Positions 6,128 through 18,891 are shown, counted from the first letter of the stretch. The stretch: DNA of 24,672 nucleotides from Chitinispirillaceae bacterium (GCA_016930275.1 JAFGHA010000179.1:1-24672); one strand, 5' to 3'. Program-made: numbers and translations. The notes: a model not told the origin generated them from the letters alone.

Positions 6128-7972
6128 TCAACCCATTGATGCATCCTCATGCATCCGGCAGATGCACATTCTCTCCCGCTCGAGAATCGCGGGGATGTTC
6201 TGAACCGTCTGAATATCATATTCCTTTATCTCGTCCGGTAACTCCTCCCAATCCACCAGATAAGGACTGATTCTTTTTTCAACATTTTTCTCATTCCCCT
6301 TTTTCCACCCGAAGAGAAACCGCTCCGCGTTCCACCGGCGGTGTTCCATACGGGCAAGCAGCTCGATTTGCTCAGGAGTAAATACCGTCACCCGATCATC
6401 CTTCCCGCATTCATCCGTATCTACAGTATCATACCCGCATGCCCGAAGTTTGACCGGCAGGTGATCGGCCTGCTGCCGGTTCGAATCGCGCAGCGAGGAA
6501 TCGAGTTCCTCCCAGGAACACAGGGAAGGAGACTGAGGATCTCCCCCCTCGAAAATCCGCCTTTGCCGGTAGTCCTCATGAATCGCCCGTGCCGTGTGGT
6601 CAAGTTCCCAGCATTCGAATATTGCAGGCGTGCAGGTTTTGTCGATTCTGCCGAATCCGTGAATATTCAAAAGTTCCTCCCCTGCCTCTTCACTGCGCTG
6701 GAGCAGTACCCCCAGCCCGGAATTGTCATCCAGCCTGATGTACAGGGGGACATCACATTCACCGGTCAGACTCCGGAGCCGCAGCGCGCAGTTGACCGAT
6801 GCCATCGGATCGTTCATGCAGAAGACGACATAAGGAAGCGTATCCGGCAGTGCCATCTGTTCAGCCACGAAGTCACTGAATTCCCGTGTGTTGAAATCCA
6901 TATCTTTAAAGGAAATAGCACTGCACGACGCCAGCGCAGGAAGCACCTGCAGCAGCAACCCGCCTTTCTGAACGGCATCACGGTCGACTACCGTTACCTT
7001 CATCTTTTTCATATTGGCGAAATGGCCAAGCTTCACCGCCTGTAAAATAACGCTCTCCCCCATCGCCCCGAACCCCGCCACAATGCAGTGTATGATCGTG
7101 GGATCATCCGGCGCAATCGGTTTACGGTCAAGCGGAAACTCCCGGAAAAGCATGCGGGCGGCAAGATCGTTGACCCGCACTATCCGGGTGGTACTGTTTT
7201 TTGAAGAGTTTCTGAAAAAACCGCTGCTGGTGCTGATATCGGAAAGCAGCAGGTTGTTCACCGCCAGGTAACAGTTGACACGTCTCCCCGTGGTTTTTTT
7301 CCGGCAGCCGATCAGTCCGTTCACTTTCTCGCCGATTTCAATATTGCTGCCGTCGTCGCCGCTGATCGCATACACCAGCGCCGCTTTGGTGATATTCACT
7401 TTACGCAGCACCATCTCTTCGGCGGCGTCGCCAATGACAACGGGCACTCCCAGTTCCCGGCAGGTTGCGATAAGGTCATTCTCCGCATCGACCTCCACCG
7501 CCACCACCTTTCTGCCGAGGGCACGGTACCCCCGCGCGAGTTCGAGCCCCCGTACTCCCAGACCGCAGATGACCACATGGTCCCGATACAGAGGAAGACG
7601 GAAAAACCGGTGCAGGAGTGCGGCAAATGTTTTAAAAGCAGCATACCCGAAGGTCAGCGGTGCAAGCAACCGTGCGATCGCAAGAATGAGTGGCACCCGA
7701 CTTCCGGTCTCCAGATTCGATTCGAGTACAAAGAGCTGCGCAGTGAGCAGCAGTATTTCCAGAACACTTTGCGGCTGCAGTTTATGCGCGTCCCGCAGCA
7801 CGAAGTAAAACCCTGCTGCACCGAGTACGGCTGCGGTTGCGGCAAGCAGGATAAACACCCGGATCTCATTCTCCCGCCACCAGCTACGCAGTGCATTGGT
7901 ACGGTACACAGGAGCAAGTTCAGTACCAGACCTGAAATATGACGATTGACATGATTTTCTGTTTTTATTCAT
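6128..7972 (-). CDS. channel-like membrane protein: 2 TM helices with a re-entrant-like segment, two TrkA-N/RCK Rossmann domains, and a C-terminal RyR-like domain
   Basis: TM helices are IRVFILLAATAAVLGAAGFYFVL and PLILAIARLLAPLTFGYAAFKTFAALL, with SVLEILLLTAQLFVLESNLE between them and no TVGYG-type filter. Two GxGxxG Rossmann starts are present: VVICGLGVRGLELA...VVAVEVD and CIVAGFGAMGESV...VTVVDRD. The C-terminus ARAIHEDYRQ...WEELD... and LARMEHRRWNAERFLFGWKKG...ISPYLVDWEELPDEIKEYD fits the RyR-domain consensus (EH.RW...GW..G...HP.L.P...L...K..D). GGAG lies 10 nt upstream of the ATG. Confidence 0.8.
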   Translation of the reverse strand: MNKNRKSCQSSYFRSGTELAPVYRTNALRSWWRENEIRVFILLAATAAVLGAAGFYFVLRDAHKLQPQSVLEILLLTAQLFVLESNLETGSRVPLILAIARLLAPLTFGYAAFKTFAALLHRFFRLPLYRDHVVICGLGVRGLELARGYRALGRKVVAVEVDAENDLIATCRELGVPVVIGDAAEEMVLRKVNITKAALVYAISGDDGSNIEIGEKVNGLIGCRKKTTGRRVNCYLAVNNLLLSDISTSSGFFRNSSKNSTTRIVRVNDLAARMLFREFPLDRKPIAPDDPTIIHCIVAGFGAMGESVILQAVKLGHFANMKKMKVTVVDRDAVQKGGLLLQVLPALASCSAISFKDMDFNTREFSDFVAEQMALPDTLPYVVFCMNDPMASVNCALRLRSLTGECDVPLYIRLDDNSGLGVLLQRSEEAGEELLNIHGFGRIDKTCTPAIFECWELDHTARAIHEDYRQRRIFEGGDPQSPSLCSWEELDSSLRDSNRQQADHLPVKLRACGYDTVDTDECGKDDRVTVFTPEQIELLARMEHRRWNAERFLFGWKKGNEKNVEKRISPYLVDWEELPDEIKEYDIQTVQNIPAILERERMCICRMHEDASMG

Positions 7973-8754: not shown

Positions 8755-11700
8755 TCATTGTTTCTGTTTGCCGGTACGGCAAAACTCCTGGTACCGTTTA
8801 ACGGCTGCAGTGTGCTCTGATTCGGGAACATACTTGCTCTCAATCTTAGCACCAATTATCCCCTCAGGTAGATCAAAGGTTAAGAGTGTTTCACCCCGCA
8901 GGAGTACCCATGTTTTCGTGGTCGACCTGCATCGATCCATTTCTCCGAAAAACAACGTCAAGGCACCGGTATCAGCAATAGTCCAGTTTCCATAGCGCAG
9001 GAAAATATCCCCGGGCTGCATTCCAAGCGAATCGGCAATGGTGTTCGGAAAAACCTGAAAGATTTTCATGGTGACCACCACTTGTTTCCCGTTAATATCG
9101 TAAAATGTTTCGGATGTAATCTTTCCGCTGTCATCGTATGCCTTGTCCCACCTGGTATATCCACCCCTGGTTCGAACCGGTTTCCCATCAAGTCCGAGGA
9201 AAAGACTGGTGGTTACATTTCCACTCTGATCATACGTATCCCTGCATTTGGCATATCCTTCAGCCAATAAAAATGGAGCACCTTCCGAATTAAAAAATTC
9301 TCTCAGCTTGACATGATCAACAGTATCATGGGTAACGATCATTTTTGCATAACCGAAATTACTTATTACCGGTTTACCCTCGGTACCGAACGTCTCATAG
9401 GAGCATAGCTCTCCCCGCGCGTTGTAACTGAAGGCCGTACGGGCGTATCCATCCTTGTTTAAAACCGGCTTTCCATCGATGCCGAAGAAGGCTTCCGACG
9501 TTGTATTACTTTGGTTATCATATGTTAATTTAGTCGAAGCATAACCTCCAACAGCAACCGGTTTCCCGTCTAAACCAAAGGTAGTAACTTCCGTACGTTT
9601 CCCCTGCCGGTTGTATTTTGCAGTCCATCTCGTATAACCGTCCTTCTGCAGGACAGGCAGTCCTTTTTCATCGAAATAACTCACCTCAGTTCTATTTCCA
9701 TGCTCATCGTTTTTCATCCGCACCTTGTGGTATCCATCAGCCCAGAGCAATGGTCGTTTTTCTGAATCGAAAAGTGATATCTCTTTTAAAAAACCGTTCT
9801 CATCATAGTCGTAACACTGCCATGTGTTTATTGAAAAATCATAAGCGGACGTCTTTCTTACATTGACATCATAACCTTCTTTAACTAATGTATCTCCCTT
9901 TTCATCATATTGATAAATAGACTTTGCGATACCTGTACTTTTTACACCCACCGCACCGCCGTCAACATCAAGAAATTCCACAGTGACCTTGTTACCGTAA
10001 GCATCAAAAGTTTGTTTCATCCTGGCAAAACCTTCATTACACCGTTGCAATTCTCCGTCGGTACCAAACATTTCAATCTCTGTGCAGTTATTATAAATAT
10101 CATGGTGATATATGTATTTTGAAATCCCGAGTTCGTTAACCACCGGCTGTCCTTTTATACCGAAGGCCTCTTCTTCAATCATATTGCCACGATCATCATA
10201 TCGTCTGACAATTTTTGCCGATCTTTTACTGTTTTGTACGGGAAGACTATCCGCTCCAAAAAATTCACTGACAACCGGGTTGCCACGCTCATCCCGGGAT
10301 ACAACGGCACGCGAATACCCGTCAGGAATCATTACAGGCTGTCCAACCGAATCGAAATATGCGACCGAAATGATATCTCCACTTTCATTATAATCCAATT
10401 CCAGTTTCGAGTAGCCCGTTTTTTTATTTGTCACAGGTTTTCCTGCGATCCCGAAATATTCAGTCTGCAGACAATTTCCCTGGTCATCGCAGATATACCG
10501 TTCACTTGCCACACCTTGTTCATTCAACGCCGGTTTATCATCCGCATCAAGATACACCACTTCTATAATATTCCCTCGTTCATCATAGGTGTAAATCCGT
10601 GTTGCATACCCAACCCCCTTCCTGCCCGGATTCTCATTCGCATCAAAATACCGTTCCTCCTCCACAACATTGAATTTATCATGGTATTTCAACTCCAGTT
10701 TCGCATACCCGTCTTTGCCGACAACATAATTCCCATTCGCATCAAAACATTCAATTTGAACCCTGTTATTTCTTTCATCATATCTATAGGCAAAACTTGA
10801 ACATCCATCTTTGCTCATTGCAGGTTTTCCATCAATGCCATAATAGGAACCCGATATCTGTAATCCCCGGCTATTGTTTACTAAAACAATTTTTGAGTAA
10901 CCGCCCATATACAACGCAGGGTTCCCGACCGTATCACGATACTCTTCAGAGGTAACATTTCCCATCTGATCATAGGTCCACACCCTTTTATGATAGCCGT
11001 ATTTGTCCATTACAGGGCTGCCATTATCCCCCAGAAACGCCTGGGATACCTTGTTCCCATTCCGGTCATATTCATACACTTGCTTTGAATATCCCTCGTT
11101 CAGAATCGCGGGCCGGCAATCCAATCCAAAACACGATACTGATGTACTATTCCCGTAAGAATCATAGGTAAACCTTATCTCCGCACATCCGGCTCTAAAA
11201 ATAAAAGGCTCACCATCCGGCCCGATGTATTCCTGACTAACTCCTTCACCATCCTTGTTCCATACCTGTTTTGTTCCCATTAAACCATTTTTAAGTGCCG
11301 CCGGTTCTCCCTTCGAATTCAGATATAAAATCCATATTACTGTCTCTGCATCTTCCAATCTGGTCATCTCGCCGAAACTGCCAGTCGCATCACAGACATT
11401 ATTTCCGAGATAATCACGATAGCGACGTACTATAGTTCGACCATTAACGTCCAGAACCAGCAGGTGCTGACTGACTTTCGATTTTCGTTGAATATTGGTG
11501 AACCCGGCATCCGCATTAAATTCCACTCCTCCCTGATGAGCTGTTGTGTGGTCAAGGCTCTTAAGATCGATATAAATCGAATCCGGCCTGGCGTTACTGT
11601 CGGACAGACCGTAACCATAGTTCCACACCATAACAACTTTCCCCAGCCAATCTTTCTGCACGATCCGCTCCACTTTCCCGTCCTGCCGGTAGTCGATGCT

Positions 11701-12588
11701 CAGCTCCGCCACCCCTAATAACCCCCCCTCCAGATCCATCAGCTGGCCTTTACTGTTGACATACCCCGCTCGGACCACCTTCCCCCCGCGCTCTTCCAGC
11801 CGCCAGGTGCGATAGCGGTGGGAATGAAATTTCCGGGATACCCACCCCACCCCTTCGGGTGCGCCCCACCGCCAGGTAATGTTGCGGTAATACCGTACCT
11901 TGACACGGGTGTAATCCCACCAGGCCAAATATCCTCCCGCGATAAGCAGCACGACCGCCCCAATCGCGCCGATCTGCAACCGCAGCCGCCGCATACGACG
12001 CTGATGCTCCCGCCGTCGCAGTTCATCATAGGAACAACCGAGCACATGCGCCAGGATTCTCAGAAGCGCATTTGATTTGAGCGTTTTCAGCGGTTCAGAC
12101 GCACGCAGCCGCACATCCGCAAAGAGCGGTTCGGCATCCTCGTCTCCTTCAACGGCTGTTCCGTCTTCCCGCTGCACCACTTTTTTCAGTTCACGCAAAG
12201 CCTGCGGAAACGATTCTTCCGGAGTGCCTTCAATAAGCAACGGAATAATGCAATGCCCGCGCCCCATTTCCCTGAACTGCGCCACCTCCTGGTTTACCCA
12301 GCGCGATTTCGGAGTCGACCGTGAACAGATCACCACCAGGAATTTCGATGCGGCAAGAGCGTTTTTTATGTCATCCTTGAGGTCTGCCGAGGTTGGCAGT
12401 TCGTCCTCGTCGCGGAATACTCTCTTGAGCTTTGCGGGAATACCCTTTTTCACCAGTGCCGCAGGCGTCCGGAACGTTTCCAGCGCATGTATCAGCCACT
12501 GTGCATACTCGCGGTCGGCATCAAGATGCCGGTAGCTTATGAAAACGTCATATTCGAACACACTGCCTTTGTCGAGTTCTTCAGACAC
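8755..12588 (-). CDS. N-terminal TIR domain, single TM helix, long extracytoplasmic 32-aa repeat array and a C-terminal PDZ-like domain (1277 aa)
   Basis: GTG start with AGGAGA 7 nt upstream. The TIR region is YDVFISYRHLDAD...FLVVICSRSTPKSRWVNQEVAQF...IIPLLIEG, with the candidate catalytic Glu at aa 101. The TM helix LQIGAIGAVVLLIAGGYLAWW covers about aa 204-224. At least 22 repeat units follow. The PDZ-like end is SLGMQPGDIFLRYGNWTI...WVLLRGETLLTFDLP (about nt 8836-9075). Confidence 0.9.
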   Translation of the reverse strand: MSEELDKGSVFEYDVFISYRHLDADREYAQWLIHALETFRTPAALVKKGIPAKLKRVFRDEDELPTSADLKDDIKNALAASKFLVVICSRSTPKSRWVNQEVAQFREMGRGHCIIPLLIEGTPEESFPQALRELKKVVQREDGTAVEGDEDAEPLFADVRLRASEPLKTLKSNALLRILAHVLGCSYDELRRREHQRRMRRLRLQIGAIGAVVLLIAGGYLAWWDYTRVKVRYYRNITWRWGAPEGVGWVSRKFHSHRYRTWRLEERGGKVVRAGYVNSKGQLMDLEGGLLGVAELSIDYRQDGKVERIVQKDWLGKVVMVWNYGYGLSDSNARPDSIYIDLKSLDHTTAHQGGVEFNADAGFTNIQRKSKVSQHLLVLDVNGRTIVRRYRDYLGNNVCDATGSFGEMTRLEDAETVIWILYLNSKGEPAALKNGLMGTKQVWNKDGEGVSQEYIGPDGEPFIFRAGCAEIRFTYDSYGNSTSVSCFGLDCRPAILNEGYSKQVYEYDRNGNKVSQAFLGDNGSPVMDKYGYHKRVWTYDQMGNVTSEEYRDTVGNPALYMGGYSKIVLVNNSRGLQISGSYYGIDGKPAMSKDGCSSFAYRYDERNNRVQIECFDANGNYVVGKDGYAKLELKYHDKFNVVEEERYFDANENPGRKGVGYATRIYTYDERGNIIEVVYLDADDKPALNEQGVASERYICDDQGNCLQTEYFGIAGKPVTNKKTGYSKLELDYNESGDIISVAYFDSVGQPVMIPDGYSRAVVSRDERGNPVVSEFFGADSLPVQNSKRSAKIVRRYDDRGNMIEEEAFGIKGQPVVNELGISKYIYHHDIYNNCTEIEMFGTDGELQRCNEGFARMKQTFDAYGNKVTVEFLDVDGGAVGVKSTGIAKSIYQYDEKGDTLVKEGYDVNVRKTSAYDFSINTWQCYDYDENGFLKEISLFDSEKRPLLWADGYHKVRMKNDEHGNRTEVSYFDEKGLPVLQKDGYTRWTAKYNRQGKRTEVTTFGLDGKPVAVGGYASTKLTYDNQSNTTSEAFFGIDGKPVLNKDGYARTAFSYNARGELCSYETFGTEGKPVISNFGYAKMIVTHDTVDHVKLREFFNSEGAPFLLAEGYAKCRDTYDQSGNVTTSLFLGLDGKPVRTRGGYTRWDKAYDDSGKITSETFYDINGKQVVVTMKIFQVFPNTIADSLGMQPGDIFLRYGNWTIADTGALTLFFGEMDRCRSTTKTWVLLRGETLLTFDLPEGIIGAKIESKYVPESEHTAAVKRYQEFCRTGKQKQ
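9076..11190 (-). repeat. coding tandem repeat: at least 22 consecutive 31-34-aa units, consensus G-Y-[AS]-K-x5-Y-D-x2-G-N-x6-[YF]-F-G-x-D-G-K-P-V-x4
   Basis: Read from the translation at aa 467-1171. Examples are GYSKQVYEYDRNGNKVSQAFLGDNGSPVMDKY, GYSKLELDYNESGDIISVAYFDSVGQPVMIPD, GYASTKLTYDNQSNTTSEAFFGIDGKPVLNKD and GYAKCRDTYDQSGNVTTSLFLGLDGKPVRTRG. More degenerate copies extend upstream to about nt 11800. The units are diverged at the DNA level, so this is not a slippage-type repeat. Confidence 0.75.
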
Positions 12589-12692: not shown

Positions 12693-14543
12693 TCACCATG
12701 CGAAAATTCCCCCGGCGACAAGGAACAATACGGCACCAATTACCGCGGCTAATTGCCACAAACGCCGTATGCGACGCTGCCGTTCCCGCTGTCGAAGTTC
12801 GTCGAACGAGCAGCCCAGCACTTGCGCAACAATACGTAAGAGCGCCATAGACCTAAGTTTCTTCACCGATTCTCCTGACCGCGGCCGCACATCGGCAAAA
12901 AGCGGTTCAACATCCTCGTCACTTTCAACAAATGTTCCATCCTCGCGATTCACTACTTTTTTCAGTGCACGCAGGGCCGGCGGAAACGATTCTTCCGGCG
13001 AACCTTCAATGAGTAGTGGGATAATATGGTGCCCACGTCCCATCTCCCTGAACTGCACGACCTCCTGGTTTACCCAGCGTGATTGCGGTGTTGCGGGGGA
13101 GCAGATAACCACCAGAAAATTCGAGGCGGAAAGTGCTCGTGTTATATCATCTTTAAGATTCGCGGAGGTTGGCAGTTCATCTTCATCCCGGAAAACCTTT
13201 GTCAATCGTGACTTAGTTCCTTTTTTGACCAGTGGCAGAGGAGTGCGGAACATTTCGAGCGCATTGACTAACCACAGAGCATATTCACGGTCGGCATCAA
13301 CATGCCGGTAACTGATAAATGCATCATACTCATACCCGTTTTCAATACCGGCATTTTCCGGTACAATCATTATTCGTATACTATTGTAAAGTTCACTGTA
13401 TAGTCGTATAGCTAAGGCTGGGATTCGAAATTTGTTCATTGCCCTATTGTCGAGCACACGCAGATATACTCCAGCTACCAGCCAGCAGGAAACAGTCCAG
13501 TACCCGCCATACCCCGCGAATGGCATAGGAATAAAGGGTACCAGCCGCACCACCCCCGTTGATCTGGTTATATGTGCAATTGCTAAAAAAATAAGAATAA
13601 ATAACAGTACCCGGGCGACTTCTCGACTGTTTTCATCGCGTATTTTTCGACATCCTGCCCACATTACATATGCCAGTACTGCATAAACTCCACACAGTAT
13701 CGCCACTCCGATGCCACCGAACTCATACCATAACATTTGCAGCGTGGAATGAGCCGCCAGTAGTTCATACCTGACAGTATTCTTATTCAAACACTGTTGA
13801 CCGTTACGGTCCTTTGTATCCGATTGCACCCACGACTTGTAGCAGTTGCGACTGTCATGCAACCGGGCCGCCGCACGAACCTGATGAGCAGACGCTTTAT
13901 CGTATACTACCTCGTTATAGTCCGGATTGAACTTCACCAGCAGTAATATCGCCACAACACCACACACCACCGGCACAAGTGCAAGGGTGATTTTTATACC
14001 GGGCATACGCGAGACCAGCACCATATACAAAACCGTTGCATTGAAAAGCAGCAGCATCGCCGTGTCCGGCTGCAGTAACAGAAGCCCGTTGACGGCAACG
14101 GTCAACCCCGCGACTGCACCCGGATATTTCCAACCGTCCTTTTTACGGCAATCAGTGAAAATCAGATGCACCAGCAGCGGCAGAAGAAGGAGCAATGCCA
14201 AAGTTCCGGAATGCAGCGGGAAAGGCCCAAACCAAACAATCTGGGGCTCTCCAGAGCAAAAAGGACCCCATTGACCGCATTGGGCTTGGGCTGTAAGGAG
14301 GAGAACTCCCGCAGCTGCAGCAAGGTGATACCTGCTTCCACGCCAATTAACTCTGACCAGCACAAGCGATGTCGCAAGAACAATTCCGAAACAGTTTCTG
14401 CTCAGGAATCGCATGAAATATTCGATATCGAATCCTGCGAACGACCAGAATTGCCGGGTAAGATACCCGCCGATTATCGTCAGGGCCAGCATCAAACCAA
14501 CAATCAGGACTGCTGTGCCGATATTCCGTTCGGTTGTTCTCAT
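12693..14543 (-). CDS. polytopic FtsW/RodA/SpoVE (SEDS)-like membrane domain fused to a TIR domain and a C-terminal TM helix (616 aa)
   Basis: ATG with GGAGA 9 nt upstream. In aa 1-365 the SEDS-like motifs occur in the right order: LLLLQPDTAMLLLF (compare QPDLGT), ELLAAHSTLQMLWYEFGGIGVAIL (compare PE.HTDFIF..i.EE.G..G) and PFIPMPFAGYGGYWTV (compare g.pLPf.SYGGS). In aa 405-585 the TIR region is YDAFISYRHVDAD...FLVVICSPATPQSRWVNQEVVQF...IIPLLIEG. The terminal TM helix is LAAVIGAVLFLVAGGIFAW. Confidence 0.8.
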   Translation of the reverse strand: MRTTERNIGTAVLIVGLMLALTIIGGYLTRQFWSFAGFDIEYFMRFLSRNCFGIVLATSLVLVRVNWRGSRYHLAAAAGVLLLTAQAQCGQWGPFCSGEPQIVWFGPFPLHSGTLALLLLLPLLVHLIFTDCRKKDGWKYPGAVAGLTVAVNGLLLLQPDTAMLLLFNATVLYMVLVSRMPGIKITLALVPVVCGVVAILLLVKFNPDYNEVVYDKASAHQVRAAARLHDSRNCYKSWVQSDTKDRNGQQCLNKNTVRYELLAAHSTLQMLWYEFGGIGVAILCGVYAVLAYVMWAGCRKIRDENSREVARVLLFILIFLAIAHITRSTGVVRLVPFIPMPFAGYGGYWTVSCWLVAGVYLRVLDNRAMNKFRIPALAIRLYSELYNSIRIMIVPENAGIENGYEYDAFISYRHVDADREYALWLVNALEMFRTPLPLVKKGTKSRLTKVFRDEDELPTSANLKDDITRALSASNFLVVICSPATPQSRWVNQEVVQFREMGRGHHIIPLLIEGSPEESFPPALRALKKVVNREDGTFVESDEDVEPLFADVRPRSGESVKKLRSMALLRIVAQVLGCSFDELRQRERQRRIRRLWQLAAVIGAVLFLVAGGIFAW

Positions 14544-14595: not shown

Positions 14596-17295
14596 TCATC
14601 TCTTCAGGTAAATCCCCAGCCCCGCGGCCTTCGCCAGTGCAGGAAGATCGCGGAATGGAGCCCGGTCCTTCTCCCGTTCCCCATCGAGTCGCGGATCGTT
14701 CCAGGGCAGAATACAGGGATGTTTTCGTGCAGGTTCGTCACGTACCGGACCGTACCGCCATCCCTCCATCAGCCGTTCGACATTCCAGCGGCCATGTTCC
14801 TCTTCGGCAAGAACCTCTATTCCCTCGTTGCCGATTGCCGCTTCGAGATCTTTCACCGGTTCTCCGTTTCCCTGACCCTGCGGAAGCAGTTCGAGCCCGT
14901 ACAATTCGAGCAGTCGCTTCATCTGAAATGCCTGATGTAAATTTGCCCTTTTGAAGGTTTCATCGAGTTCGTCCCATTGCGGCAGAGGGGCGCGGCGCGT
15001 TCCGGCGATGTATTTCTCGTGAAGCAGCCGCGCGAACGGTTCCACCTCACCGCGAACCGGTGAAATCACTCCGAGGTTTCCCGGAATCATCCGGCAGAAA
15101 TTCCGTATGGTCGCCTGATCATGCGGCAGTGAAAAGCAGCGTTTCCTGACGGTCGCCGACCATCGCGAAGCCTCCCCGGTGATCTCATCGGCACTGCGGC
15201 CGCTGCCCGCTATAATACCGACGGTTGCCCCGAGGGCGGCCGCAAGACGGTACTCAAAGAGCGATATCGGACCGCCGCCCGCTCCGAGCACCCGGACATC
15301 TTCCGGACGTACACCGGCTGAAAGCAGATCGATCCAGTTCTGCACCGGTTGAGCGAAGGTAAACCTTTTGGAACGCGGCACCGTGATCTGTTCATATGCC
15401 GGATGTTCGGCATCGTCATCCACATGACGCGACTCTGGCCGATACGCCTTCAACTGCGGCGACGCTCCGTTGCGCCGGGATGCGGCGATCGCATCGCCGA
15501 CGATTTTCGCGACGCCGACATCGGTGCCGCCGCAGTACACCGTTCCGTTGAATCCGTCAAGTGCGGAAGTTATCGCCCCCGAAAAGGCATCGAGTGTCTC
15601 CTGTTTGTCGCGGTCGCAGGTCCCGGCGACGATCAGTACCGGTCGTGTCGGATCGATTGACGTGTCAAGCGGAGTGAGAACGGAATCGCCACCGGTTTCC
15701 GGTGGTTCACCACCGGCCTCGACCACGACCATACCGATCGCAAGCACCTGCAGAAGCAGTTTGAGCTGCCGTGCGAAATCGGTGTCGAGCGATTTCACCG
15801 CGTCGTAGAGTTCCTGCAGGAGTTCCCGCTCTTCCGCCACCTGGCGGAAATCGGTACTTGACGCGATCCCCATGGTACAGCAGCGAAGACTTTCCGGCAG
15901 ATCACCCGCCAGAGCAAGGAGACGCGCACTGGTGAAATGGGCGAACGGCAGTTCAATCCCCGCCGTCGCATGCTCTTGGCAGCTTGCGACCGCCCCGGCG
16001 ATTGCCGACTGCATCGCGATCGCGGCAGACCGTGAACTCCTGCCGAGACAGAGCATGTGAACATAATGCCCGAACAGATAGGGATTTTCCGGAGCGAGCA
16101 GATGGGCCTGGAAATAGTAATTGCGGGCCGCCACAATACGTCTATGTGATGCAGTGTCGATCAGTTCACAACGGCCGCATTCGGCCATTGCCAGTGCCCT
16201 GACCGCCTTTTCCCGGTCGTCATCCTCAATATCCGCTTTCAATCGATGCACTATCGTGCAGAACTGCTGATCTTCGGTCAATGCATCGATATCGACGACA
16301 ACCGGCCGGGCAAGCGCGATAAGATCATCAAAACCCGCTCTGAATTCAGCCGATTTCCGTTCATGCACATACAATCGGCAGCGCGCCTCGGCAACGATAT
16401 ACCGCAACTCGTTTCGGAACGGCCCCCGCGCGGTTGCAATCCAGGGCGCACATTCCAGTACGTGTTTCCAGTCACGGAGACGACGATACAGCTTGCCGAG
16501 ACGCAGCGCGATCGGAGCCGTTTCTTCACCGAGGTTCTGTGCAAGAAGCAGCCTGAGCCGTCCGACCTCGGCCTCCATTTCTTCCTTATCAAGAAACGCG
16601 CCGTGATCGACTTCGTAGGTTTTCAACCGGTCAACCAGTGCATCGATCGAGCAGCTTGCCTCCTCGAGAACCGCCGAGAGGCGGTTCGATTCACGCACCA
16701 GTACCGCGGGAATTTCCGCTCCGCCCTTGTACAGCAGATCGTGCAGTGCATCCGCCCATACATGTTGAAGATCCGTACGGATCTGAATCTCCGCTTTACG
16801 CTGCAGCCTCGTTCCATCCGAAGCAGCCTTCCGTACCTCCTTGATCGCTTCGGCAATCGACGACGGTATCTCGATCCCGGCCAGTGCCATTCTCTGTTCG
16901 AAATCGGCGGGCAGGAGCACATCAAGATGCACCGAGCCGTACCCGAACCGCTCTACTCCGGCAACCGCAAGTTTATCCTCGCTCTTCTTCACATCGAGGA
17001 ACCGGCCGATCAACCGGTTGGCTTCTCTGACTTCCATCCCGGTATGAACGATAAGTCTGCCGCCGCACAGGTCGCCGAACTCGTGCACCGGATCGGTATA
17101 TCCCGTCTTGCGCAGAATTTTTTCCGCAAAACTCGCCGTTTCCTTGGTACGGACCGCAACCGTACCGAGCGGAGCCGTCCGGTCGCGTACCGCGGCGAGC
17201 AGCCAGGACAATATCTCTCCGAACGATTTGTAAATCGGCCGTTCATACGAAGTGAATTCCGTGATCTGTTGTTCGATAGTGACGGTACCGTCCAT
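14596..17295 (-). CDS. RelA/SpoT-family nucleotidyltransferase, helical linker, SLOG/LSDAT domain and RyR-like domain fusion (899 aa)
   Basis: The RelA_SpoT motifs lie in aa 55-190: FAEKILRK, GDLCGGRLIV, FGYGSVHLDV and AEIQIRTDLQHVWADALHDLLYK. The SLOG/LOG-like motifs lie in aa 550-705: VLIVAGT, YCGGTDVGVAKIVGD, LGAGGGPISLFEYRLA and IIAGSGRSADEI. The RyR-like region lies in aa 752-895: FARLLHEKY...WDELDE and LAEEEHGRWNVERLMEGWRYGP...KHPCILPWNDP...EREKDR. Confidence 0.9.
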   Translation of the reverse strand: MDGTVTIEQQITEFTSYERPIYKSFGEILSWLLAAVRDRTAPLGTVAVRTKETASFAEKILRKTGYTDPVHEFGDLCGGRLIVHTGMEVREANRLIGRFLDVKKSEDKLAVAGVERFGYGSVHLDVLLPADFEQRMALAGIEIPSSIAEAIKEVRKAASDGTRLQRKAEIQIRTDLQHVWADALHDLLYKGGAEIPAVLVRESNRLSAVLEEASCSIDALVDRLKTYEVDHGAFLDKEEMEAEVGRLRLLLAQNLGEETAPIALRLGKLYRRLRDWKHVLECAPWIATARGPFRNELRYIVAEARCRLYVHERKSAEFRAGFDDLIALARPVVVDIDALTEDQQFCTIVHRLKADIEDDDREKAVRALAMAECGRCELIDTASHRRIVAARNYYFQAHLLAPENPYLFGHYVHMLCLGRSSRSAAIAMQSAIAGAVASCQEHATAGIELPFAHFTSARLLALAGDLPESLRCCTMGIASSTDFRQVAEERELLQELYDAVKSLDTDFARQLKLLLQVLAIGMVVVEAGGEPPETGGDSVLTPLDTSIDPTRPVLIVAGTCDRDKQETLDAFSGAITSALDGFNGTVYCGGTDVGVAKIVGDAIAASRRNGASPQLKAYRPESRHVDDDAEHPAYEQITVPRSKRFTFAQPVQNWIDLLSAGVRPEDVRVLGAGGGPISLFEYRLAAALGATVGIIAGSGRSADEITGEASRWSATVRKRCFSLPHDQATIRNFCRMIPGNLGVISPVRGEVEPFARLLHEKYIAGTRRAPLPQWDELDETFKRANLHQAFQMKRLLELYGLELLPQGQGNGEPVKDLEAAIGNEGIEVLAEEEHGRWNVERLMEGWRYGPVRDEPARKHPCILPWNDPRLDGEREKDRAPFRDLPALAKAAGLGIYLKR

Positions 17296-17459
17296 TTTAT
17301 TTCTTTCTGTTGGTCATGATTTTTCGTATTTCCTCAGGAGTCGGAAGACAGAATCCATCCTACTGAACGGGATCACCTTGAGCGGGAGATGACAGTTATT
17401 CGCAATCATTTATGCCGTCGTGTAGAGCAGAATGTTTTTCTGATTCTGGATTCCGACTA

Positions 17460-17478
17460 CATCCCGCTTGGCGGGATG
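17460..17478 (-). promoter_or_regulatory. GC-rich stem-loop in the 209-nt spacer between the HD gene and the RelA/SpoT-SLOG gene
   Basis: CATCCCGC (17460-17467) and GCGGGATG (17471-17478) form a perfect 8-bp stem with a 3-nt loop, about 27 nt downstream of the HD stop on the - strand. No U-tract follows, so it is not a canonical intrinsic terminator. Confidence 0.4.
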
Positions 17479-17504
17479 GATACCTGCGTAGTTCCGAATT
17501 ATCT

Positions 17505-18089
17505 TTACACCTCTCCGAATAACTGTTCCACCAGATGCTGCAACTGCCCCACCAGTGGTTCGCACCGAAGCCCCGTAGACCGTTTTCCGAACAGACGTAC
17601 CAGTTCCCGGTAATACCACCGGGCTCCATCCTTTCCACCGTTGAAACGCTCCCAGACCATATCACCGGCAATCGCGACATCTGCAGCGATATCACTGAGG
17701 TTACAGAATTTATCCGCCGCGGCAACGGCGAGAGCTTGCTCATCAACGGTCATCAGCCGGGTAATGGTCCGCTGCTTTTTTCCCCGCCACCCGTCATCCT
17801 GATCATGAAAGGTCACCTGCTCAACAATACCGGTAATTCCCTCACCGAACTCTCCCGCCAGTTCACTGCGGGTCACGGTGGTATCCTCCAGTACATCATG
17901 CAGTATACCGGCCGTTACCACCGGATCGTCACACCCGAGCCGTACCAGTGTGCGGGCGACGTCGAGCGGATGACAGAGGTACGGTATGCGGGTGCATTTC
18001 CGGAATTGCCCCGCATGCGCCCGGGCTGCGAAAACCGTAGCTTTGAAAACAAACGTTCCCTCAACGGAATTGTTTCGCCAATTCTCCAC
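17505..18089 (-). CDS. stand-alone HD-domain (p)ppGpp-hydrolase-like protein (small alarmone hydrolase / SpoT-Mesh1 HD_4 type)
   Basis: GTG start with GAAAGG upstream. ARAHAGQFRKCTRIPYLCHPLDVA...AGILHDVLEDTTVT...EFGEGITGIVEQVT matches the H..Q.R / PY..HP..VA / LHD..EDT / FG..v...V..vT signature of SpoT-type hydrolase domains. The later AAADKFCNL corresponds to the ADRL.N helix. Confidence 0.85.
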   Translation of the reverse strand: MENWRNNSVEGTFVFKATVFAARAHAGQFRKCTRIPYLCHPLDVARTLVRLGCDDPVVTAGILHDVLEDTTVTRSELAGEFGEGITGIVEQVTFHDQDDGWRGKKQRTITRLMTVDEQALAVAAADKFCNLSDIAADVAIAGDMVWERFNGGKDGARWYYRELVRLFGKRSTGLRCEPLVGQLQHLVEQLFGEV

Positions 18090-18342: not shown

Positions 18343-18615
18343 TTATTTACCGGCACTTTTTTTACACGCTTCGACCGCGTCATTGCACTGCATCCGGTAT
18401 GCCTTGAGAATATTCTCGGCATCCTTTTTCTCATCGTCGGAGAGTTTCTGAAACGTGGCCTCGAATTCCCGCGCCTCTTTGCAGATATCCTTCATGTGAT
18501 TGCAGTAAGGGGTATCGGGAAGCTTGGCGGTATTGACGAACTCCGCCCCTCCGCAACCGGTTGCACCCATAACCGACAGCACCACAGACAGCACCGGTAG
18601 AATTCGTTTTTCCAT
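18343..18615 (-). CDS. small lipoprotein (hypothetical)
   Basis: The track ORF starts at 18633, but the second ATG (18615) has AAAGGAA about 7 nt upstream. MEKRILPVLSVVLSVMGATG|C is a signal peptide with a lipobox-like ATGC. The mature part is a helical, Cys-containing 65-aa domain. Confidence 0.6.
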   Translation of the reverse strand: MEKRILPVLSVVLSVMGATGCGGAEFVNTAKLPDTPYCNHMKDICKEAREFEATFQKLSDDEKKDAENILKAYRMQCNDAVEACKKSAGK

Positions 18616-18891
18616 GAAGGATTCCTTTCGCATGTTCCGGAGTCAGAGCCGCGGGAGAGATCCGGATAGTTCCGAAAATACCGACCGCAACCACATCGTG
18701 AAAATATACTTTCGGAATTGCAGTTGCGCGACGACGGAATGCTCGGTAACCTGCTCAGAGAGGACTTCACGCAAATGATATTCAGCCTGTACACTAGCTG
18801 CAACGGCCGTCGACGGCAGCTCCGCGACGATGGTACCTGCTGTACGCTGACGCGATTCAGCCACCGGTGACATTCGAGGTCACGATGAGAA

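Follow-up and report, generated by a model that had tools for sequence, protein, structure and literature searches.

In type I Thoeris defence, a TIR protein, ThsB, makes 3' cyclic ADP-ribose (3'cADPR), which is received by the SLOG domain of the effector ThsA and thereby activates its SIR2 NADase (10.64898/2025.12.03.692087). In toxSAS modules such as FaRel/ATfaRel, FaRel2, PhRel2 and CapRel as well as Tas1/Apk1, a RelA/SpoT homologue (RSH) synthetase devoid of HD, TGS and ACT domains is encoded next to a neutralising gene, which in the case of FaRel is a small alarmone hydrolase (SAH), and SAH enzymes were shown to neutralise every toxSAS toxin tested (PMC7229694). Long RSH enzymes of the Rel/SpoT type carry the hydrolase N-terminal to the synthetase domain and have C-terminal regulatory domains gating the synthetase. 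Here, we analysed a stretch of 24,672 nucleotides from a Chitinispirillaceae bacterium (GCA_016930275.1, JAFGHA010000179.1:1-24672; in the following the window), in which an 899-aa protein encoded at positions 14596-17295 of the minus strand joins a RelA/SpoT synthetase to TPR-like, SLOG and RyR modules and is accompanied by an HD hydrolase gene and by two TIR genes. In analogy to the systems described, its input side is Thoeris-like and its output side resembles a toxSAS/SAH or Rel/SpoT pair, and the locus probably encodes an undescribed anti-virus switch.

The open reading frame (ORF) of the 899-aa protein is intact and its product matches an NCBI hypothetical protein of a Chitinispirillaceae (Fibrobacterota) metagenome-assembled genome (MAG) with 100% identity. 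Pfam places RelA_SpoT at residues 49-192 with 41 bits compared to a cut-off of 27, and no TGS, ACT or HD domain was found in the protein by Pfam and further profile searches. For the analysis of conservation the window protein was aligned with 20 full-length homologues of 27-49% identity, i.e., 21 sequences in all. The RSH catalytic motifs R49xK51, SFxEKxxRK and D75LCGxR80 are invariant in 21/21 sequences, and the same applies to FGY119xxxH123 and AE169xQxRTxxxH178xWxxxxH185xxxYK190. The active site of the synthetase thus reads as intact and the domain is apparently active. An AlphaFold model calculated on this alignment (pLDDT 86, pTM 0.75) splits the chain into the synthetase (residues 1-195), an all-helical part (residues 197-527), an alpha/beta domain (residues 550-740) and a C-terminal helical part built of two repeats (residues 745-897). 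For the synthetase domain (residues ~1-195; positions 16711-17295, minus strand), Foldseek returned RelQ/SAS1 (5dec) as best match with a TM-score of 0.80, followed by RelP and then by CapRel (7ztb) with a TM-score of 0.42. By fold and catalytic motifs the domain belongs to the RSH SYNTH domain class. However, the toxSAS toxins are small and essentially single-domain synthetases, whereas this protein has 899 residues and carries TPR-like, SLOG and RyR modules in addition, and it also does not unite HD, SYNTH, TGS and ACT in one chain as long RSH enzymes do. The system is therefore not part of the toxSAS subfamilies as they are defined, being set apart by its size and its multidomain build.

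The helices following the synthetase, assigned by DSSP on the AlphaFold2 model (positions 15715-16707, minus strand), are TPR-like, as TPR matches were obtained with Pfam in several homologues and partial Foldseek matches to the TPR of SPY/OGT were found. The following alpha/beta domain (residues ~550-740; positions 15076-15648, minus strand) is matched by the SLOG family LSDAT_prok at residues 551-710 with 25.9 bits at a cut-off of 25.4; 16 of the 21 aligned family members match this profile, and the residues G590, G594, G675, E681 and G689 are invariant in the alignment. Due to the borderline score the domain was modelled alone with AlphaFold, resulting in a model with a pLDDT of 90. A Foldseek search with this model yielded first the N-terminal domains of ADP-ribose (ADPR)-bound TRPM2 (8sre, E 2.5e-7), then those of TRPM4/5/7/8 and at lower ranks MoCo carrier protein, LOG and PpnN. 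The fold search with the predicted structure confirmed the borderline profile call, identifying the domain as a SLOG of the TRPM/LSDAT type; glycine-rich loops, conserved glutamate and profile match are those of an LSDAT SLOG. The sequence-only reading, an earlier annotation of this DNA made without database searches, had staked its claim on the recognition of this segment as a SLOG fold by profile or structure, and both recognise it. The domain is a candidate sensor for an ADPR-type ligand.

The C-terminal module (residues ~745-897; positions 14605-15063, minus strand) consists of a degenerate first and a canonical second RyR repeat, with a Pfam RyR match at residues 826-884 (37.4 bits at a cut-off of 27.4). 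Its relatives in the PDB are the Repeat12 domains of RyR1/2/3 and Bacteroides RyR-like proteins, two stretches of the module align to the chimera 6uhi, and Foldseek aligned the C-terminus over ~196 columns to the RyR3 Repeat12 domain (6uhb). For phage proteins containing RyR domains it was shown in a 2026 preprint that they have nanomolar affinity for 2'/3'cADPR or convert it into ADPR by cleavage, using the residues H75, W78, H100 and D117, which are common to the R12 domains of animal RyR (PMC13232231). H834, W837, H859 and D877 of the window protein align with the RyR1 H/W/H/D positions; their equation with the residues of the phage glycosidase RyDEP is made via this RyR1 alignment and via the statement of shared positions in PMC13232231. 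The core residues E833, H834, R836, W837, W846 and W865 are invariant in the 21-sequence alignment, D877 is conserved to at least 90%, and H859 is variable in the family. Profile match and ligand residues thus assign the module to the RyR/R12 family (PF02026), and it appears as a second candidate sensor, i.e., a candidate binder or glycosidase of cADPR isomers, not as a passive tail. The sequence-only reading had described a RyR-like tail; the family was recognised correctly, while the tandem R12-like build with retained 2'/3'cADPR-ligand residues goes beyond a tail. Its calls of the synthetase, the helical linker, the SLOG and the RyR part all agree with Pfam, AlphaFold and Foldseek, as do the presence of all synthetase hallmarks and the lack of TGS and ACT, and its suggestion of an allosteric ligand gate is plausible.

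Downstream of the effector and on the same strand two TIR genes follow, which the sequence-only reading had missed. The first begins 52 nt past the effector stop codon (positions 12693-14543, minus strand) and encodes a 616-aa protein with a polytopic membrane region of weak similarity to FtsW/RodA, a TIR domain (TIR_2 49 bits, ThsB_TIR 37 bits) and a C-terminal transmembrane helix. A further 104 nt downstream the second gene (positions 8755-12588, minus strand) encodes a 1277-aa protein with a TIR domain (TIR_2 52 bits, with a ThsB_TIR match as well), a transmembrane helix and ~1000 residues of YD/RHS-like repeats, for which weak RHS/YD matches were obtained. The two TIR domains are 73% identical over 213 aa, yet they are joined to different membrane or extracytoplasmic parts. 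Both contain the catalytic glutamate within the motif SRWVNQE, and this residue is kept in 57 of 59 TIR domains adjoining family members. As judged from these residues the TIR genes look catalytically competent, and the two proteins are proposed as signal generators of the system. After the TIR domain, both proteins also have a conserved helix and transmembrane segment in common.

The window encodes a further RyR protein of 614 aa (positions 6128-7972, minus strand), which was likewise missed before. It consists of two to three N-terminal hydrophobic helices, a TrkA_N domain (RCK-like; 62 bits) and a tandem RyR module (RyR 43 bits), and its C-terminal 150 aa share 29% identity with the RyR module of the effector (E 1e-15). 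According to this domain composition the TrkA_N-RyR protein could be a ligand-gated, channel-like second effector.

To see how far this arrangement is conserved, relatives were sought in 185,579 genomes, one per species, and at least 480 were found. The top 79 loci, without exception full length, are distributed over more than ten phyla, including Fibrobacterota, Desulfobacterota, Planctomycetota, Verrucomicrobiota, Chloroflexota, Actinomycetota, Bacteroidota, Gemmatimonadota and others, with archaeal MAGs among them. A cultured bacterium, Oligosphaera ethanolica DSM 24202, harbours a homologue as well (L066). An exhaustive search with the synthetase domain resulted in 1371 clusters of 50% identity at E<=1e-10, of which the nearest 150 are mostly proteins of 800-1000 aa; with this query, a word-indexed search gave 2 matches only. 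A phage origin of the family was considered and dropped, as no relative was present in IMG/VR viral contigs. For a census of the neighbours, hidden Markov models for HD, NUDIX, TIR and TrkA_N-RyR were built from seed neighbours and run on six-frame ORFs, genes at the census loci were called with a codon-usage score, and 84 distinct loci were counted. A MutT-like NUDIX is encoded adjacent to or fused with the synthetase protein in 61/84 loci. In most cases it occupies the -1 or +1 position in the same orientation as the synthetase gene, with which it frequently shares a few bases, and it is fused N-terminally to the RSH-SLOG-RyR protein in P0042, P0076, P0095, P0119, P0130, L037 (5763-8708) and L083 (9608-12493), the fused forms carrying one or two NUDIX domains. 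TIR occurs in 41/84 loci; among the 33 loci that extend for at least 8 kb to either side, the count is 18. TrkA_N-RyR proteins occur in 17/84. An HD protein is present in 4/84 loci (the window, L082, L011 and L002), three of which are without NUDIX. The same partners were present in precomputed Pfam annotations of six independently fetched contigs. The other immediate neighbours are heterogeneous; among them are STAND NTPases carrying TPR or WD40 repeats, a type of protein typical of conflict systems. The recurrence of TIR and TrkA_N-RyR genes turns the two-gene toxin/antitoxin system of the sequence-only reading into a Thoeris-like path from a TIR-made signal to an effector.

As the sequence-only reading stated, a gene coding for the HD hydrolase half only is located upstream of the effector on the same strand (positions 17505-18089, minus strand). 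The 194-aa product is a single HD_4 domain (Pfam, 64 bits) with the motifs H40, H64D65, E68D69 and D126xxxN130, and it matches TIGR00691 (spoT_relA) over the N-terminal hydrolase part only. Its closest relatives in the PDB are the small HD hydrolases 4yf1 (E 3e-26), 7qoe and 7qoc; further relatives are the hydrolase halves of Rel/SpoT (1vj7), MESH1 and a (p)ppApp hydrolase. Its single HD_4 domain, its HD and ED motifs and its kinship to Rel/SpoT hydrolases are those of an SAH, and we propose that it is the off-switch that would remove the product of the synthetase. A perfect inverted repeat with an 8-bp stem and a 3-nt loop (positions 17460-17478, minus strand) lies 27 nt past the HD stop codon and is not followed by a T run. 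This hairpin may be a transcript-end or processing signal between the HD and the synthetase gene. A toxSAS-like feature of the family is a conserved adjacent gene of neutralising type, which is the NUDIX in most loci and the HD in the same place in the window. The HD gene occupies here the -1 position that is held by NUDIX in ~25 related loci, and the frequencies of the two suggest that the window shows the displacement of one hydrolase type by another and not the founding arrangement. The assignment of the locus to the toxSAS/SAH arrangement therefore holds for the pairing of a hydrolase with a synthetase, while HD is not the conserved partner.

The exchange of the two hydrolases is informative with regard to the substrate. 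The NUDIX partner is closest to MutT, NudG and NudI and not to the ADPR pyrophosphatases NudF or NUDT9. Degradation of (p)ppGpp to pGp by MutT and NudG was shown both in vitro and in vivo, and the two enzymes permit the deletion of spoT in E. coli (PMC5845004). In view of this activity the swap of NUDIX for HD points to an alarmone as shared substrate, and with the HD in the usual place of NUDIX and with N-terminal NUDIX fusions in Rel/SpoT order, the product of the synthetase is the most economical candidate. MutT-like NUDIX and SpoT-type HD enzymes are known as functional analogues in the removal of alarmones, so that by analogy NUDIX would be the normal antidote in this family, which supports the spirit of the toxin/antitoxin idea.

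Two modules of the effector come from families whose members read TIR products, the effector is encoded beside active-looking TIR genes, and like Thoeris effectors it appears to have signal-binding-type domains (SLOG and RyR) fused to an arrest-type domain (RSH synthetase). Likewise, the catalytic-glutamate TIR gene beside the effector is a Thoeris feature. From the parts list, its conservation and its linkage we infer the mechanism as follows. When triggered, probably by infection or by damage to the envelope, the membrane-bound TIR proteins would convert NAD+ into an ADPR-derived signal, e.g., a cADPR isomer. Binding of this signal to SLOG and/or RyR would relieve auto-inhibition or drive assembly via the TPR region, and the synthetase would then transfer pyrophosphate from ATP to a 3'-OH, most likely making (p)ppApp or (p)ppGpp, thereby draining ATP/GTP and arresting growth; the blocking of tRNA CCA ends would be a less likely output. 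The neighbouring hydrolase, HD in the window and NUDIX in most relatives, would degrade the product and, similar to a type IV antitoxin, would thereby set a threshold that guards against leaky activity and make recovery possible. Moreover, as the RyR module keeps the His/Asp dyad of RyDEP, it may in addition break down the signal, serving as a built-in timer, and the TrkA_N-RyR protein may be a parallel effector reading the same signal. That a TIR-made ADPR-type signal switches on the synthetase by binding SLOG and/or RyR, with NUDIX or HD removing the product, is the reading towards which we modestly lean. A broader reading joins all these observations: the family would be a widespread undescribed class of TIR-dependent immunity, in which a SLOG/RyR-gated synthetase turns a NAD-derived signal into a burst of alarmone and the system is reset by a NUDIX or SpoT-type hydrolase; host RyR would be the common receiver, possibly a self-limiting glycosidase timer, on synthetase, TrkA_N channel-like and AAA effectors, and the ligand modules of TRPM2 (SLOG and NUDIX) and of RyR (R12) would meet in one prokaryotic system. 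This wider claim is put forward tentatively, its chances being somewhat short of even.

The spread of the family bears on a different explanation, according to which the proteins are housekeeping stress regulators whose SLOG and RyR domains sense the NAD+/ADPR status and tune (p)ppGpp, with NUDIX or HD opposing, i.e., a split analogue of Rel/SpoT. The order of hydrolase and synthetase, the NUDIX fusions included, does resemble long RSH enzymes, the SLOG of TRPM2 binds plain ADPR, half of the loci are without a nearby TIR gene and the window contains no other defence genes. However, the patchy spread over distant phyla and archaea, the recurrence beside TIR, STAND NTPase, WD40/TPR and YD-repeat genes and the presence of several different RyR-terminated proteins in the same islands are marks of conflict systems and not of core metabolism, making such a regulator unlikely.

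The output of the proposed switch could also be a different one, i.e., a TIR-gated synthetase that pyrophosphorylates the 3' CCA end of tRNA as CapRel, FaRel2 and PhRel2 do. CapRel is among the structural matches, the toxSAS toxins so far tied to phage defence are those targeting tRNA, and SAH enzymes reverse the toxicity of tRNA-targeting toxSAS too (PMC7229694). Nevertheless, the best structural matches are the nucleotide-making RelQ/RelP, well ahead of CapRel in TM-score (0.80 versus 0.42), and after the action of a MutT-like NUDIX a 3'-phosphate that blocks the tRNA would presumably remain, whereas such an enzyme turns ppGpp cleanly into pGp (PMC5845004). This RelQ/RelP-like fold and the expected action of NUDIX favor free nucleotides, and we regard tRNA as an improbable target.

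Without any role of the TIR genes, the locus would be a plain type IV toxSAS/SAH pair, i.e., a toxin checked only by HD, with SLOG and RyR sensing an endogenous metabolite. The HD gene directly upstream on the same strand, the capacity of SAH antitoxins to neutralise all tested toxSAS toxins (PMC7229694) and the proximity of the synthetase fold to small alarmone synthetases and CapRel fit to such a pair. It is unlikely nonetheless: HD is found in only four of the 84 loci, the protein with its three extra modules is no small single-domain synthetase, TIR recurs in about half of the loci and is encoded 52 nt downstream here, and both extra ligand modules come from families that read TIR products. 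A relay or reversed order, in which the synthetase product is the messenger for TrkA_N-RyR or for TIR proteins acting as NADase effectors, or in which RyR and SLOG mainly degrade or buffer the TIR signal, is very unlikely, as the TIR proteins of the window have no alarmone-binding module recognisable by Pfam, and the element common to the co-located proteins is RyR and not an alarmone sensor, which fits to several effectors reading one ADPR-type signal, even though TrkA_N/RCK domains bind nucleotides, TIR domains serve as NADase effectors in other systems, the RyDEP catalytic dyad is kept in the RyR module and the SLOG relatives LOG and PpnN are enzymes.

Several observations weigh against the TIR-gated switch. 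About half of the related loci have no TIR within 10 kb, and the homologues closest to the window protein (L001, L008 and L009) have NUDIX but no TIR within this distance, so that TIR may be dispensable or may work in trans. The HD gene lies 209 nt upstream of the synthetase gene on the same strand with the hairpin in between; HD is rare in the family, and its linkage in the window is drawn from its position and from one comparable locus, L082 (33% identity). The substrate of NUDIX could be the ADPR-type signal and not the alarmone, an option ranked lower given the kinship of the enzyme to MutT, NudG and NudI. The SLOG score is barely above the Pfam cut-off, though the fold search agrees. Furthermore, a Pfam-level scan revealed no further recognised defence genes around the system in the window, and the PADLOC match of the effector comprises only a 19-residue stretch of the candidate PDC-S33; for the HD protein PADLOC gave no match.

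Compared to type I Thoeris (ThsB TIR and ThsA SIR2-SLOG), the locus shares one or more TIR genes with catalytic glutamate beside an effector whose SLOG lies C-terminal to the killing or arrest enzyme, as well as multiple TIR paralogues per locus. In contrast, the effector enzyme is a RelA/SpoT pyrophosphokinase instead of a SIR2 NADase, the SLOG is of the TRPM/LSDAT type, a tandem RyR, a TPR-like region and a dedicated NUDIX/HD partner are added, and the TIR proteins are membrane-anchored and very large. With toxSAS modules it shares an RSH synthetase without HD, TGS and ACT beside a neutralising gene, and it differs by its three sensor or scaffold modules, its link to TIR and its conserved partner, which is NUDIX and not an SAH or a protein-binding antitoxin. 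As in long RSH enzymes the hydrolase is located N-terminal to or upstream of the synthetase and C-terminal domains would gate the latter, but the hydrolase is a separate HD gene or an adjacent or fused NUDIX, and the regulatory part is TPR-SLOG-RyR instead of TGS-helical-ZFD-ACT, suggesting that the input would be a small ligand and not the ribosome. The RyR module is of the same family (PF02026) as RyDEP and other viral RyR proteins and keeps the H, W, H and D for 3'cADPR binding and cleavage of the ribose-ribose bond (PMC13232231), while it is the host-encoded C-terminal module of large proteins near TIR, forms a tandem pseudo-dimer in one chain instead of a homodimer and would serve as sensor and/or timer, not in immune evasion. 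Finally, TRPM2 (LSDAT SLOG/MHR1-2 and NUDT9-H) provides the best structural match of the SLOG, its ADPR-bound forms coming first, and likewise has SLOG and NUDIX in one system, whereas the output here is an enzyme and not an ion channel and the NUDIX is MutT-like and not NUDT9/ADPRase-like.

A literature search returned no paper linking RSH enzymes to TIR, SLOG or RyR, although an earlier in-silico mention in the 2015 work defining SLOG/LSDAT is possible. The preprint on Thoeris V-XI and its supplements do not contain the terms RelA, RyR, Nudix, PF04607, PF02026 or PF18171, and the system is not among the types I-XI given there. If the TIR-gated reading is true, it joins TIR/NAD-derived immune signals with RelA/SpoT alarmone chemistry, which were so far treated separately, and extends Thoeris-like defence by a new class of effectors. 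It would also provide a function for host-encoded RyR domains, of which only phage versions were characterised so far, as anti-Thoeris proteins, and a prokaryotic setting that unites, in joint action, the modules by which the animal TRPM2 and ryanodine-receptor channels sense ADPR. Moreover, it makes a testable prediction on why MutT-like NUDIX and SpoT-type HD can stand in for each other.

With regard to the surrounding of the system, the ORF calls in the window give a row of minus-strand genes encoding the 194-aa, 899-aa, 616-aa, 1277-aa and 614-aa proteins, with a thioredoxin gene on the opposite strand between the 614-aa gene and the 1277-aa gene. Rfam and tRNA scans of the window gave no match, and a scan for promoter and terminator consensus sequences gave matches at chance level. 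Just upstream of the HD gene, a 96-aa ORF (positions 18343-18633, minus strand) has a lipoprotein-like signal sequence (…LSVMGATGC…) and no Pfam match. The DNA coding for the YD repeats (positions 9000-11000 of the window) has a GC content of 0.42-0.43 and a GC skew of -0.2 to -0.33, while the flanking genes have a GC content of ~0.55.

Other RyR-ended proteins are encoded in the same islands as well, i.e., proteins of ~860 aa with an unrecognised N-terminus and AAA-RyR proteins of 900-990 aa (L050 7841-10447, L054 7907-10447, L034 3215-5806, L047 15006-17690 and L071 18557-21529), suggesting that RyR is a shared receiver on several effectors. In P0018 (locus L004, 3701-6877) a KaiC-like ATPase domain follows the RyR module, and the 215-kb contig also encodes an archaeal-type histone. 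In the Syntrophobacteraceae-like locus L002 (5486-8470 and 12732-17696) the effector is flanked by Asp-protease-like/TIR, Tubulin_2, VWA and 1654-aa TEN/YD-shell proteins, and YD-shell proteins recur together with the family in at least two loci.

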